DNA of 59,849 bases from a bacterium. GTDB lineage: Bacteria; UBA6262; WVXT01. The notes under the pieces were generated by a model. The model was not told where the DNA came from. It searched no databases and worked only from the letters and a program-made list of their open reading frames with translations. Positions 4,039 through 10,876 of the stretch are shown one piece after another. Numbering within the stretch: position 1 is the first letter of the stretch; the number at the start of each line of letters is the position of its first letter. The position numbers and the translations under genes are program-made. The stretch is from contig JBHIBS010000002.1 in the NCBI GenBank assembly GCA_046759165.1, positions 1 to 59,849 on the forward strand. Reading direction: 5' to 3'.

Positions 4039-4395
4039 ATGCAAATTCCAGAGAAGAATTTCTTTTCAATAGGAGAGGCGAGCAAAATCACTGGTGTAAA
4101 GCCTTATGTCTTGAGGTACTGGGAATCGGAATTTAGGCTACTCCGTCCAGCCAGAAGGGAAAGCGGGCATCGGAAATATACTCCTAAAGACTTAGAGCTC
4201 ATCGGTGAGATAAAAGAACTGCTTTACGAGAACAAATTCAGCATAGCCGGCGCAAAGAAATATTTACTTGAGGAGAGAAAAAACAAGAAACAGCAGCTGA
4301 GACTCGACCTGGAAAAGGATAGCGCTGCTATAAGCGTCCTAAGGGAGACAAAAAAAACGATAAAAGAAATACTCAAGATGTTAGAAAAAGAATAA
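4039..4395 (+). CDS. MerR family transcriptional regulator
   Basis: N-terminal HTH FSIGEASKITGVKPYVLRYWESEF followed by a coiled-coil tail. Confidence 0.8.
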   Translation: MQIPEKNFFSIGEASKITGVKPYVLRYWESEFRLLRPARRESGHRKYTPKDLELIGEIKELLYENKFSIAGAKKYLLEERKNKKQQLRLDLEKDSAAISVLRETKKTIKEILKMLEKE

Positions 4396-4434
4396 AATGT
4401 GGAGTCCGCTGTTTACATTCGGCAACTGAAGAAT

Positions 4435-4511
4435 CGGGGCGTAGCGCAGTTGGTTAGCGCACCAGCATGGGGGGCTGGGGGTCGGCGGTTCGAGTCCGCT
4501 CGCCCCGACCA
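4435..4511 (+). tRNA. tRNA-Pro (anticodon GGG)
   Basis: Hand-folded cloverleaf: acceptor CGGGGCG/CGCCCCG, D arm GCGC-AGTTGGTTA-GCGC, anticodon arm CCAGC-AUGGGGG-GCTGG, T arm GGCGG-TTCGAGT-CCGCT. CCA is encoded. Confidence 0.93.
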
Positions 4512-4515
4512 AGCC

Positions 4516-4717
4516 AAACTTTGCGAATTGCTGGGGAAAAAATGAAGCTCGCTCAGCCTTGTTTTCGCTCAGCTTCGCTTTTTATAAGTCCTTTTATAAT
4601 AAAGAATTAAGTCAAATGGTTTTTGAAAATCTAAAAATATTTTTTTGTCCAGCAGGCGACGGTTTGTTCCAATTTTTTTCACAAAAGATTTTATTTCATA
4701 AAAATCACATAAGGAGG
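4516..4717 (+). repeat. leader-like repeat, copy 1 (3' module only)
   Basis: Starts AAACTTTGCGAATT 5 nt after the tRNA CCA and ends TCACATAAGGAGG. Aligns along its length with 7836-8026 and 10699-10876. Confidence 0.85.
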
Positions 4718-4786
4718 TAGAATGAAAGCATAGTGCACCTCAAGCAAGATAGTATATAATGGTGAAAAACGGAAAGGAGGTGCGCA

Positions 4787-5841
4787 ATGCAGTACATGGG
4801 AGTGGATAATCACAAGAGGTTCAGCTACATTGTAGTCACAAACAGAAAGGGCAATGTAGTAAAGGAAGACAAGGTACCAAATACCAGAGAGGCGCTGGGT
4901 AGATTTTTAAATAACCCACACCAGGACAGAAACTCTTATGCGGTCTTAGAGACGGGAAGGAACTGGACAGCACAGTAATGTATGATTGGCTGGAAGAAGA
5001 GGTAAAAGACGCGAAGTTAGCTCATCCTCTCAAGGTGAAGGCTATAGCTGAGGCCAGAATAAAGACAGACAAAATTGATGCCAAGACCTTGGCCGATCTA
5101 TTAAGGGCAGATCTAATTCCTGAGGCCTATGTTCCTTCACAAAAGGCAAGAGCGGCCAAAAACATCCTTAGACAGCGTATGTTCTTCGTCAAGGTAAGGA
5201 CTATGGTGAAAAATAGGATTCAAGCTATCCTTGACCACTATCCAGATATCTCTAACCAATGGTCTGGCACGGACCTATTTGGTAAACAAGGCAAGAGCTG
5301 GTTGAATTCTATCACCTTACCCGAACCGGATAATAAACTGCTCAAAGAACAAATCAAATTCTTCGATTCTTTAACTGAACGCATCAAGGCCTCTGATTAT
5401 CTGGTTAGTATACTAGCTAAGACTGATAACAGAGTAGCCCACTTAAGAACCATTCCTGGTATAGGGCTATTCTTCGCCACTTTGATAGCTTATGAGATAG
5501 ATGAGATAAAAAGATTCAGAATAGAGAAAAAGTTCAGAAGTTATATTGGTATTATACCTTCTACCTTTCAGACCTCTGAGACGCTCTATCATGGCCGAAT
5601 CACGAGAGAAGGTAACAAATACATAAGATGGGCCCTTATTGAGGCAGTATGGCCAGCTATGAATAAAGATTATTTCCTAAGAGCCTGCTATAACAAAATA
5701 AGACAGCGTAGAGGTGTAAATATAGCTAAGGTAGCTACAGCAAGACGCTTAGCGACAATAGTTTATCGAGTTCTATCTCAAAGTAGACCCTATATAGTCA
5801 ATTACCCCGGTCGCCCTCATGTTTTCCTGACGAATCCTTAG
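4787..5841 (+). pseudogene. IS110-family (DEDD) transposase, split into two ORFs by a frame change at TAATG (4976-4980)
   Basis: ORF1 (4787-4978) carries GVDNHK and LETGRNW. ORF2 (4978-5841) carries KTDKIDAKTLADL and the Transposase_20-like LRTIPGIGLFFATLIAYEI...GNKYIRWALIEA. The catalytic residues are divided between two frames. Confidence 0.8.
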
Positions 5842-6015
5842 TAATTTGGGATTGCGTCCTTTAAGGAGGTTGGGGGACCGGGGATCGAACTCTATAATGT
5901 GTTCCGATAAGGGGACGAATGGGAGGCTGATCATAAGATCACCCCATAAGCGATAGAAGTAATTAAAAACTTTTTAACCTGCATAGTGTAAAAAATACTT
6001 GCACTATGCTTTCAT
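5842..6015 (+). ncRNA. candidate IS1111-type bridge/seek RNA region (3' non-coding end of the IS)
   Basis: 174 nt of non-coding sequence after the transposase stop, against only about 50 nt before it. Contains hairpins TGATC-ATAA-GATCA and GCATAGTG-N13-CACTATGC. Inferred from family knowledge only. Confidence 0.3.
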
Positions 6016-6026
6016 GGAGGGTAATC

Positions 6027-7316
6027 ATGCAAAGTAAGAACATGAAACGCTGGTTCAAAGGAATTCTTTCTGGGGGAGGCATTGTGGTCTATTTTATCAT
6101 GGCTTTTGAAGTCATGATTATGATTAGTCCCTTTGCTTTCTTTTTCTATTCTGTTTTCAACCCGATTTTTCATCTTCTCGGAAAGTATTCCGCGACCCGG
6201 TGGCTAACCGGATTCTTTCTCCCCCATACGGTCTTTCCACCTGGTGTCTTTCTGCAGGGCATTAGAGTCCTTGGGTCTGTTTTGTTCATTTTAGGTCTCG
6301 GCTTCTTTCTTATTTGTGCGTCACAGGTATACTTGGGCAAGATTCTCAAGCGCGGCGTCGCCACCAAAGGTTTATACCAGGTGATTAGACATCCGCAATA
6401 TTTAGGCCTTGCGATTTGCGGCGCTGGCATGGCGATTCTATGGCCAAGGTTCCTAGTACTGGTGACACTCTCGCTGATGCTGATCCTTTACTACTTTCTA
6501 GCCAGAGACGAGGAACGCCGAATGACGAACGAGTATGGAGATGCCTATCAGAGATATATGGAGCAGACGGGTATGTTCCTTCCTCGATGGATTGAACGAC
6601 CAGTTACTTCTAATGCCCTCAGTAATAGGCTGAAGCCTTACCAATCAATAGTTTTTCCACTCGTTACAGTTGTCACTATTTTAGTCTTGGGCTTTGCCTT
6701 ACGCACATTAACCGTGGCTGAATTACCAGTAAAAATTGAAGGAAACATAGCGGTAGTTTCTATGCTTCCTGAGGATAATGGTTTTCTAAAGGGAGCGGCA
6801 AGCAACTTAAGCGGAGCAGAAGGAAAGTTGCCAAATAATCTCATTCTGAATCAAAATGAAGCATACCTTGGCTATCTCATGCCCGTGGATTACGTTATGC
6901 AGGGAATGATTGCTAATACCGGAAAGCGCTGGCAATTGTACAAGCGGCACCATGCTCTTCAAATGATAAGTGATTGGGTGTTTCACCCGTTCCGTCATCT
7001 TCGACAGCCACCGATGCATACAATGCAACACATGCCTACAGGACACACCATAGCCATGGCTCGCCGGCATCTATGTCCTTTGAACATCAACGACCCCACT
7101 TTGGAATGTAACAATTGCCCATATCGGAGAGTTGTGATAGTGCAAGTGGACAAGAAAAAGAAAAGGCCGTTGACAAAGGCGCTATTGTTCGCCCTTCGTG
7201 CTGAGAGAACAGCAGTTGCTTATCTTGACATGGACGTCCGTTCTGGCAAAATTATTGATGTAGTCAGAGTGCAAGGAAAAACGTTGTGGGAGGAGGTGCC
7301 AACCCCCATTTTTTAA
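6027..7316 (+). CDS. ICMT/PEMT-like membrane methyltransferase fused to an uncharacterised C-terminal domain of about 200 aa
   Basis: GLYQVIRHPQYLG...ARDEERRMTNEYGDAYQRY, multiple TM helices, then one more TM and a His/Cys-containing tail. ATG at 6027 follows GGAGGG (6016-6021); the ORF track starts at 6006, inside the IS inverted repeat. Confidence 0.8.
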   Translation: MQSKNMKRWFKGILSGGGIVVYFIMAFEVMIMISPFAFFFYSVFNPIFHLLGKYSATRWLTGFFLPHTVFPPGVFLQGIRVLGSVLFILGLGFFLICASQVYLGKILKRGVATKGLYQVIRHPQYLGLAICGAGMAILWPRFLVLVTLSLMLILYYFLARDEERRMTNEYGDAYQRYMEQTGMFLPRWIERPVTSNALSNRLKPYQSIVFPLVTVVTILVLGFALRTLTVAELPVKIEGNIAVVSMLPEDNGFLKGAASNLSGAEGKLPNNLILNQNEAYLGYLMPVDYVMQGMIANTGKRWQLYKRHHALQMISDWVFHPFRHLRQPPMHTMQHMPTGHTIAMARRHLCPLNINDPTLECNNCPYRRVVIVQVDKKKKRPLTKALLFALRAERTAVAYLDMDVRSGKIIDVVRVQGKTLWEEVPTPIF

Positions 7317-7517: not shown

Positions 7518-8026
7518 GCAGGCAACGGAAGACAGTCGTAGGCTGGCTGAAGTCCGAGCACCGAGACTGCTGGGTGTGTGGGGAGAAGATTTGGCTTCTC
7601 TGCCCGACAGGAGCATTTAACTACTTTGATTAAGGGCACAGGCGGACAAGCCCGAGCAAAATAGTTTCTTTTTAAGAATTTTGTTCGGCGCACACTTAAA
7701 AAAATAGAATTTTCCACAATGGCGTGGACGCAAGCCCGAAGTGTTAGCGAAGGGCAGGCCGAATCGCAGGACTAAGCTTTTGTTATTGATTTTTCAAAAT
7801 AGGTTCGCACTTCGTTTAATAACAGCGACCAAATGAAACTTTGCGAATTCTGGGGGAAAAATGAGGTCGATTGAGCCTCGACTTCGCTTTTTATAAAGTC
7901 TTTTATATTCAGGAATTAAATGAAATGGTTTTTCAAAATCTAAAAAGACTTTTCTATCCAGGAGGTGACGGTTCGTTCCAATTTTTTTCACAAAAGATTT
8001 TATTTCATAAAAATCATATAAGGAGG
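7518..8026 (+). repeat. leader-like repeat, copy 2 (5' module 7518-7835 + 3' module 7836-8026)
   Basis: Collinear with 10382-10876. The first 93 nt differ at only 2 positions. Ends in AAGGAGG 4 nt before the ATG at 8031. Confidence 0.9.
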
Positions 8027-8030
8027 AATT

Positions 8031-10381: not shown

Positions 10382-10876
10382 GCAGGCAACGGAAGACAGT
10401 CGAAGGCTGGCTGAAGTCCGAGCACCGAGACTGCTGGGTGGGTGGGGAGAAGATTTGGCTTCTCTGCCCGACAGAAGTGTTTGCTTTCTTGATTAAGGGC
10501 AGAGGCGGATGAGCCCGAGCAAAAAATAATGCCTTTTTTAAAAAATTTGTTCGGCACATCCCTAAAAACAGATTTTTTTGCGAGGGCGAGAACGCAAGCC
10601 CTGAGCGGAGCGAAGGGCAAGCCGAATCGCAAGATTAAGTTTTTATTAATGATTTTTCAAAATAGGTTCGCACTTCGTTTAATAACTGCGACCAGATGAA
10701 ACTTTGCGAATTGCTGGGGGAAAAATGAGGTCGATTGAGCCTCACTTTCGCTCGACTTCGCTTGTCATAAATCCTTTTATATTAAGGAATTAAATCAAAA
10801 GGTTTTTCAAAATCTAAAAAGACTTTTCTATCCAGGGGGTGACGGTTCGTTCCAATTTTTTTCACATAGGAGGAGG
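10382..10876 (+). repeat. leader-like repeat, copy 3 (5' module 10382-10698 + 3' module 10699-10876)
   Basis: Same order and orientation as copy 2. Has a 25-nt deletion near the 3' end and ends in AGGAGGAGG before the ATG at 10885. Confidence 0.9.

Follow-up and report, generated by a model that had tools for sequence, protein, structure and literature searches.

Elements of the IS1111 type excise as a circle whose joined ends form a promoter, and a DEDD recombinase, together with an RNA from the 3' non-coding end of the element, recombines the circle junction with a base-paired target (PMC11187229, PMC11208160). The seekRNA elements of this type (ISEc11, ISKpn4, ISPst6 and ISPa11; Siddiquee et al., 2024, PMC11187229) combine a DEDD transposase and perfect sub-terminal inverted repeats with short asymmetric terminal extensions and a long non-coding region 3' of the transposase gene, holding a structured RNA of ~85 nt. 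Here we analyse a stretch of 59,849 nt of bacterial DNA (contig JBHIBS010000002.1 of assembly GCA_046759165.1; "the window" in what follows), positions 4715–6018 of which are very probably a copy of an IS1111-type element of the IS110 family that has a guide RNA and a Shine-Dalgarno target and that is probably dead. The transposase, the repeats and the long non-coding region with its structured RNA are all found at this locus, where the extensions are compatible with the 7/3 or 6/3 rule, and two more points are shared with the seekRNA elements (PMC11187229), namely natural re-targeting among the relatives and a joined-end promoter, the latter predicted here. The locus differs from them in its repeats of 16 nt, against a usual 11–13 bp (PMC11187229; 7–17 bp are given for the IS1111 group in PMC11208160), in a target that is the Shine-Dalgarno sequence before genes, in an extra guide for the left half of the target, apparently of the bottom-strand type and placed 5' of the internal loop in a hairpin loop of its own, and in the broken state of the window copy. 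The likeness to the named IS1111 elements is one of description, and the closest plasmid-borne relatives are annotated as IS110 family and are at most 49% identical.

The second described system is IS621 with its bridge RNA (Durrant et al., 2024, PMC11208160). As in IS621, a single RNA would read both the donor (the element end) and the target, with guides that pair to opposite strands around a shared core. Unlike the RNA described here, which lies in the right end, that of IS621 is encoded ahead of the gene, in the left end, and the repeats of IS621 measure 2–3 bp, with CT as the core dinucleotide (PMC11208160).

With terminal extensions set at 7 nt on the left and 3 nt on the right, as is the convention published for IS1111 (PMC11187229), the element has a length of 1304 bp on the plus strand. 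As GGAGG is present at both junctions (4714–4718 and 6016–6020), the two ends can be shifted in step by as much as 4 nt, and the ends proposed here may be off by a few bases. The left extension AGGTAGA (4715–4721) is followed by the left sub-terminal inverted repeat ATGAAAGCATAGTGCA (4722–4737), which is complementary at 16 of 16 positions to the right repeat TGCACTATGCTTTCAT (6000–6015); the right extension GGA (6016–6018) comes next. The 15-bp repeat ATGAAAGCATAGTGC (4722–4736) and its reverse complement (6001–6015), which the original prediction of an insertion sequence named, are present, the perfect repeat being one base longer, and a 14-mer of the repeat has no further occurrence within the window. 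In relatives the right extension is mostly GGG, in others AGG or TGG, each then followed by AGG, and the window extension appears to have lost one G. Outside the repeats there are 9–10 nt in total and a shared GGAG(G), which fits the 7/3 rule in the window only if one G is missing. The non-coding ends are asymmetric: the 3' side measures 174 nt (5842–6015), the 5' side 65 nt when counted from the first base of the left repeat up to the transposase ATG, and relatives are built likewise. The original prediction had noted this asymmetry, with about 50 nt against 139–174 nt.

The relatives come from 80 loci of one metagenome scan (transposases 52–65% identical to a reference protein, P0003) and five loci of a reference-genome scan. 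About 60 of them have a matching architecture and a length of 1240–1340 bp, and in the ~60 loci with sufficient flank, from metagenomes and metagenome-assembled genomes (MAGs), a 13–20-nt inverted repeat is found at the equivalent positions, the left arm mostly 30–60 nt ahead of the start codon, the right one 120–240 nt past the stop. The arms covary, ATGAAAGCATAGTGCA, ATGATAATGTAGCGCA and ATGAACGCACAGTGC each occurring with its own complement, in flanking DNA that is unrelated between loci, and one of the two plasmid copies examined has the same inverted repeats. The left extension is lineage-specific (TAGA, ATACA, TTACA, TAAC or AATTAG). For the two closest relatives, L015 and L016, the contigs end at runs of exactly 30 shared bases, which we take to be branch points of the assembly graph and not ends of the element.

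The transposase gene is in two pieces, an N-terminal fragment of 63 aa (4787–4978) with the first D and the E of the DEDD motif, and a C-terminal fragment of 287 aa (4978–5841) with the rest of the DEDD domain and Transposase_20. Their coordinates agree with the predicted split at an overlapping TAATG (4976–4980), and an alignment read by eye (A1) bears out the division of the catalytic residues between two frames, with GVD and LETG in the short open reading frame (ORF) and a KTDKID pair in the long one. In Pfam, the short ORF matched DEDD_Tnp_IS110 (PF01548; profile 2–52, E 2.6e-4, alone below the gathering score) and the long ORF matched the same domain (profile 64–153, E 1e-10) as well as Transposase_20 (PF02371; E 3.3e-19). 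The NCBIfam equivalog NF033542, "IS110 family RNA-guided transposase", scored 187.8 bits for the long ORF alone, above its cutoff of 140, and 234.7 bits for the intact relative P0003. The element is a member of the IS110 family, as every defining feature that could be tested (domains, NF033542) was found, and it is placed in the IS1111 group on its repeats, the position of its non-coding region and the layout of its RNA. The predicted IS110/IS1111 assignment is supported.

The long 3' end had been proposed as a guide RNA, and a conserved structured RNA core of the seekRNA or bridge-RNA type was found there at 5852–5937 on the plus strand, with segments that covary with both junctions. The first 50 nt past the stop codon are conserved more than the coding sequence between the window and its 81% identical relatives. 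The core consists of a hairpin H1 (5856–5878; stem 5856–5860/5874–5878, loop 5861–5873) and a stem S2 (5883–5932; 5883–5886/5929–5932), which encloses an internal loop and a further hairpin, g (5901–5904/5913–5916). The 5' side of the internal loop (5887–5900) holds TCTA (5891–5894), and its 3' side, GAATGGGAGGCT (5917–5928), has the sense of the family right junction. This structure was read from conserved blocks of 39 loci (alignment A4) and then tested on that same alignment, where 89.2% of cells were paired, compared with 79.0 ± 0.9 in column shuffles (0/500) and 28–53% when the partners were slid; two-sided changes were seen in 8 of the 13 pairs. S2 is the best-supported helix, with 93.6% of cells paired and two-sided changes in three of its four pairs (AU 18, GC 13 and GU 6 at one pair; UA 24 and CG 12 at the next), while H1 has 86% of its cells paired and two-sided changes at two pairs, and hairpin g has 88% paired.

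A covariance model built from this alignment (R1) scored 83.2 bits (E 1e-14) at 5852–5937, which is its single match in the whole 1.88-Mb MAG to which the window belongs (165 contigs, 92% complete), and the window RNA is third-best among the 34 matches of the R1 search. The model also matches just 3' of the transposase in 31 loci outside its training set, and it matches two alphaproteobacterial plasmids. A search of 4300–6400 against Rfam, with E up to 1, gave nothing in 5842–6015, the only matches being a tRNA-Pro and a weak antisense match that overlaps it. The latter (HPnc0260, 4476–4638, minus strand; 38 bits against a gathering score of 59; antisense to the tRNA-Pro(GGG) at 4435–4511) is most likely spurious. 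Two other structures were considered and set aside. Applied to the raw MAFFT alignment of whole tails, RNAalifold returned next to no structure (-1.4 kcal/mol), and the block-based structure was used instead; a single-sequence fold (z -3.3) paired 5871–5877 with 5941–5947, a partner that is missing in many lineages, and the H1 pairing was therefore preferred.

Three segments of the RNA covary with the junctions between element and host, two of them of the bottom-strand type (5862–5870 and 5918–5926) and one of the top-strand type (5891–5894). The first, TAAGGAGGT in the loop of H1, equals the left junction at 4710–4718 in the same sense, and as a guide it would, by analogy with the family, pair with the bottom strand. 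Across 47 loci, loop and left junction share an exact run of 7.4 nt on average, and the summed runs of 346 were reached in 0 of 5000 permutations both over all loci (223 ± 11) and within lineages (292 ± 7). At the four host-only positions upstream of the core, 108 of 188 comparisons were matches, compared with 88 ± 4.7 in within-lineage shuffles (1/5000), and a column analysis found the same base at 5865/5866 and at position -9 in 94–96% of loci. Relatives with a loop other than AAGGAG (L010, L017, L038, L054, L062, L076 and L079) have left flanks that match it, and the unusual loops that match their own flank include UUAAAAAGAU in L017, CUUAAGGU in L076, UCCAGGU in L079, UUCAGGAG in L010, CACAGGAGAAU in L054 and CGGAGAU in L038.

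The second segment, TCTA at 5891–5894, corresponds to the left extension TAGA (4718–4721) in reverse complement, and by comparison with the family it would behave as a guide for the right donor and pair with the top strand. Position 5892 and the left-junction position -2 (two bases before the repeat) are complementary in 98% of loci, where 33% would be expected (mutual information 1.61), and the neighbours follow in antiparallel register, with 5891 and -1 complementary in 88% and 5893 and -3 in 100%. For the 5' side of the internal loop the permutation statistic was 236, compared with 192 ± 6.9 within lineages (0/3000). The third segment, AAUGGGAGG at 5918–5926, has the sense of the family right junction CAT-GGG-AGG and would, again with its strand taken from the family, act like a left-donor guide. 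Its mean exact run with the right junction is 8.4 nt, the sum of 410 compares with 369 ± 7 within lineages (0/3000), and 5921 has the same base as position +1 in 98% of loci. The order within the internal loop, with the top-strand-complementary segment 5' of the bottom-strand-complementary one, is that of the IS1111 seekRNAs (PMC11187229) and the reverse of that in IS621, which has two internal loops, each with the left guide on its 5' side (PMC11208160). Only three of the four guides expected from the IS621 scheme (PMC11208160) were found here, and the mapping onto it is incomplete. As a guide for the right half of the target, 5854–5860 was considered and rejected, being constant within lineages whose right flanks differ, and none was found in the region past S2; the weak conservation of the right half of the target fits the absence of a covarying segment beyond its first base.

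The flanks of the element show what was hit. On the left, the host leader (copy 1, 4600–4718) ends in the Shine-Dalgarno sequence TAAGGAGG (4710–4717), its last bases overlapping the left boundary of the element. This leader is collinear with a second copy at 7913–8030 (89% identity) up to ATAAGGAGG, diverging right after, and partly with 10783–10866; copies 1 and 2 run together up to their AAGGAGG, and copy 2 then enters its own gene. On the right, GGAGGG (6016–6021) stands 5 nt before the ATG of a gene for a PEMT/ICMT-like membrane methyltransferase (6027–7316, plus strand; Pfam PEMT, E 1.3e-9). Because leader copy 2 is collinear to ATAAGGAGG and then goes on into its own gene, the pre-insertion site was most likely ATAAGG^AGGGTAATCATG, the ribosome-binding site of the methyltransferase gene, and the element split this gene from the repeated leader, leaving GGAGG before it. 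The element had been described as sitting exactly between a leader repeat and its cargo gene; the leader repeat and the split are real, and the insertion point lies inside the Shine-Dalgarno sequence, with GGAGG again on the right.

The same arrangement is found in the relatives, where the left flank reads ...aaaGGAG, followed by 4–6 lineage-specific bases and the repeat, and the right flank reads (G)GGAGG or AGGAGG, followed by a few bases and ATG. For 45 targets reconstructed by the 7/3 rule the logo is AAAGG|AGG, with A at +1 in 44/45 and G at +2 in 45/45, the window being the only target with a base other than A at +1. An ORF of at least 40 codons in the orientation of the element starts at most 30 nt from the right end in 29 of the 45 loci, mostly at 9–13 nt; in several further loci the downstream ORF is cut by the contig end. 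The two plasmid loci, both in cultured Alphaproteobacteria (L110, Sphingobium sp. EP60837 plasmid pEP1; L111, Afipia carboxidovorans OM4 plasmid pHCG3B) encode proteins 48–49% identical, with RNA scores of 44.6 and 49.9 bits and a AAGGAGAAU loop, and the left end of L110 looks degenerate. The elements lie 6 nt before the annotated starts of genes for a CoA-transferase subunit A and an MbcA/ParS/Xre antitoxin. The RNA of this clade specifies AAGGAGG as the target, a Shine-Dalgarno sequence situated a few bases ahead of a start codon, in the orientation of the gene.

Our evidence covers the anatomy of the element, its conservation across the family, the covariation of the RNA structure and that of guides and junctions; circle formation, the junction promoter, RNA loading and the strand paired by each segment would follow the pattern of the family. 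Under this scheme the RNA core would serve as guide, with the hairpin loop 5862–5870 (UAAGGAGGU) carrying the sequence of the left half of the target, and, in the internal loop, 5891–5894 complementary to the first bases of the element and 5918–5926 resembling its last bases and the shared GGAGG. The circle junction would read ...GCTTTCAT-GG(G)-AGGTAGA-ATGAAAGC..., the target would have the form AAAGGAGG-N6-ATG, and the element would have entered the Shine-Dalgarno sequence of the PEMT-like gene at an empty site in which ...CATAAGGAGG was joined directly to GTAATCATG.

Several points weigh against this reading. The third guide segment of the window matches its own right junction over a run of only 4 nt, the poorest of the nine loci listed, where the family mean is 8.4. 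The relatedness of the loci inflates all the covariation statistics, an effect that the within-lineage permutations lessen and do not remove. In H1, 12 of 39 cells are unpaired at one pair, and the changes are mostly one-sided. For right-flank positions +2 to +12 there is no covarying RNA column, as a guide for the right half of the target would provide, and the guide for the left half sits in a hairpin loop and not in an internal one, so that there is no one-to-one map on the two-loop scheme of IS621. A DNA search of 60 related genomes found no empty site, so that where precisely the element ends and how large the shared core is had to be inferred; among the eight other genomes of the family, the route through orthologues of the downstream gene gave no true orthologue. 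The 5-nt insertion that breaks the transposase frame could be an artefact of assembly or of the population. Lastly, the RNA, the circle and transposition are predictions from sequence.

The frame break was examined by comparison with the closest relatives, P0003 (from L015) and P0004 (from L016), which are 81% identical. The N-terminal fragment is 75% identical to residues 1–63 of P0003, and where the relatives read NWTVMYDW, the window reads NWTAQ-stop/MYDW. In the DNA alignment both relatives have a 5-column gap, corresponding to five extra bases in the window, ACAGC at 4967–4971 (equivalently CACAG, 4971–4975), and when these are removed in silico the frame runs through 349 aa, gap-free and 80.5–80.8% identical to P0003/P0004. 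The frame split would then be a lesion unique to the window copy, with no sign of programmed frameshifting, and the possibility of a fixed frame change, which had been raised earlier, falls away, since the insertion is missing in both closest relatives. At the right junction the window has CATGGAGGG, its own guide AUGGGAGG and most relatives CATGGGAGG. An intact second copy, which had been suggested as a way to settle the ends, was not found by DNA search in the MAG, nor were further copies in 60 related genomes. The only other IS110-family gene that a protein search of the MAG returned (L098, contig C5:16194–17210) has an apparently intact frame of 381 aa, is 37% identical to P0003 and has no R1 match adjoining it. 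The window copy is probably immobile, because its transposase is split, a G is lacking at its right junction and no second copy is present in the MAG; as decay is otherwise small (perfect repeats, high-scoring RNA), the inactivation was probably recent.

One objection is that the frameshift, and perhaps the missing G too, are assembly or consensus errors of the MAG and that the real element is intact and mobile. Multi-copy insertion sequences often collapse in assemblies, the element is present as a single copy in a MAG of 165 contigs, and the rest of it is intact. Against this, a 5-nt near-duplication (ACAG-C-ACAG) is not typical of short-read consensus errors, and the element is well away from the ends of its 59.8-kb contig and has unique sequence on either side; we consider an error of this kind unlikely. 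Another alternative is that the Shine-Dalgarno-like segments of the tail are ordinary ribosome-binding sites or chance G/A-rich motifs, with the target preference determined by the protein or by selection after insertion. AGGAGG is a common motif, and the lack of an RNA column that covaries with the right half of the target would suit such an explanation. However, loops that do not resemble a Shine-Dalgarno sequence (AAAAAGAU, CUUAAGGU, UCCAGGU, UUCAGGAG, CACAGGAG and CGGAG) match their own left flanks, the host-only positions upstream of the core match above the within-lineage shuffles (1/5000), the segments sit in loops of a covarying structure, and the mechanism is experimentally established for IS1111 members (PMC11187229). 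This alternative is very improbable.

We likewise give little credence to a functional two-frame transposase, whether through a programmed -1 frameshift or through translational coupling at TAATG, in an element that is still active. The stop/start overlap (4976–4980) would be the natural site for it, and the perfect repeats and an RNA that ranks third of 34 show how little decay there is elsewhere. However, near-full-length homologues among the matches listed (of 2363 in all) are single ORFs of ~350 aa, the five bases responsible for the shift are absent from the two closest relatives, the start codon of the second frame corresponds to a Met inside the protein that is conserved in NWTVMYDW, and the split would cut the RuvC-like DEDD domain between the E and the second D. 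The TAATG overlap is a by-product of a native GTAATG read out of frame, since relatives without the 5 nt read through it. The idea of a host hairpin (ATGAAAGCATAGTG-N13-CACTATGCTTTCAT) hit by a repeat-less IS110-type element with an 8-bp duplication of GCATAGTG, entertained in the original prediction beside sub-terminal repeats, can practically be dismissed: GCATAGTG is directly repeated at 4728–4735 and 5981–5988, as had been noticed, and 5981–5991 can pair with 5999–6009, but a covarying repeat travels with the element, at a constant distance from the transposase gene, in ~60 relatives with unrelated flanks, leader copy 2 runs from AAGGAGG straight into its gene with no hairpin, counterparts of the internal GCATAGTG in 19 of 50 relatives covary with their own repeats, and TAG-ATGAAAGCATAGTGCACC is common to L015, L016 and the window, so that the inverted repeats are part of the element.

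In the IS1111-type element that we favour, the additional copy of the repeat core at 5981–5988, the third, pairs with 6002–6009 to form a right-end hairpin (5981–6009). Equivalents with their own covarying sequence (GTAGCG-N13/14-CGCTAC) are confined to some lineages, and judging from these the extra GCATAGTG belongs to the right end as a feature conserved within lineages.

When the ends are joined by the 7/3 rule, the pattern TTGnnn-17/18-TAnnnT arises in 39 of 48 loci, the window included, with a spacer of 17 nt in 35 loci and 18 nt in four, and the -10 hexamer ends on the AT of the ATG in the repeat. The halves of the predicted promoter of the window would be a -35-like TTGCAC (5999–6004) and a -10-like TAGAAT (4718–4723), the latter composed of the extension TAGA and the AT of the left repeat. 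A promoter at joined ends is known for ISEc11, as cited in PMC11187229, and the predicted window junction matches it. One lineage (L036, L049, L051, L054, L055, L061, L068 and L071; extension AATTAG, repeat ATGAACGCACAGTGC) shows an exact TTGACA immediately inside the right repeat and has no junction promoter of 16–18-nt spacing under the 7/3 rule. Because of this lack of a correctly spaced promoter, the geometry of its ends may differ by 1–2 bases.

Other expression signals were noted at the left end. After insertion, a host Shine-Dalgarno sequence stands 4–5 nt before the ATG that opens the left repeat (4714–4733 in the window, and in most relatives). In most lineages the left repeat has the form ATG-NNN-NNN-TAG, an ORF of three codons (MKA* in the window) with constant ATG and TAG and six variable bases, an arrangement that may be due to chance, serve in recognition or act in translation. 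A consensus scan found the promoter-like TTCATA-17-TAGAAT (4695–4723), with its -35 in the host leader and its -10 in the left end of the element; promoter-like sites in the region number 5, compared with 3.1 ± 1.6 in shuffles, and are not above expectation. It is conceivable, though we regard it as doubtful, that the clade is specialised in exploiting host expression signals, beyond merely having one more target. Its guide loop mimics a Shine-Dalgarno sequence, it always inserts in the orientation of the gene and restores GGAGG for the host gene, a host ribosome-binding site comes to lie before the ATG of the repeat, and the -10 of the element can pair with a -35-like sequence of the host. 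If this were true, the integrated element would be expressed from the promoter and leader of the host, and the choice of target and expression would be coupled.

As for the surroundings of the element, the leader of ~120 nt occurs three times (4600–4718, 7913–8030 and 10783–10866), each time just upstream of a different gene. These encode the PEMT-like methyltransferase (6027), a YbjQ-domain protein (8031; Pfam E 2.9e-29) and a hydrophobic ORF of 86 aa (10876).

Insertion at Shine-Dalgarno sequences has a precedent in IS900 and IS901 of Mycobacterium avium, which are IS110-family elements usually placed with IS110 proper and whose insertion is orientation-specific. A statement in PMC2942039, citing Doran 1997 and Inglis 2003, has them insert between the Shine-Dalgarno sequence and the start codon. 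They share with our clade the insertion at a host Shine-Dalgarno sequence and differ from it in being mycobacterial. The literature that we searched reports no RNA guide for this preference of IS900/IS901 and contains no paper dedicated to Shine-Dalgarno targeting by IS1111 or bridge-RNA elements, only the older statement on IS900/IS901. The element described here would be a member of a known mechanism with a new class of target, rather than a new mechanism.

IS110/IS1111 recombinases and their guide RNAs are under development as programmable tools for genome insertion. The clade adds ~60 natural pairs of RNA and target, among which re-targeting is visible, and these show which loop positions of an IS1111-type scaffold are programmable. 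They also offer an explanation based on RNA for a long-noted preference in the IS110 family, that for ribosome-binding sites just before start codons. For the genome studied here, the consequence is that one membrane methyltransferase gene has been cut from a shared leader by an element that is now probably immobile.

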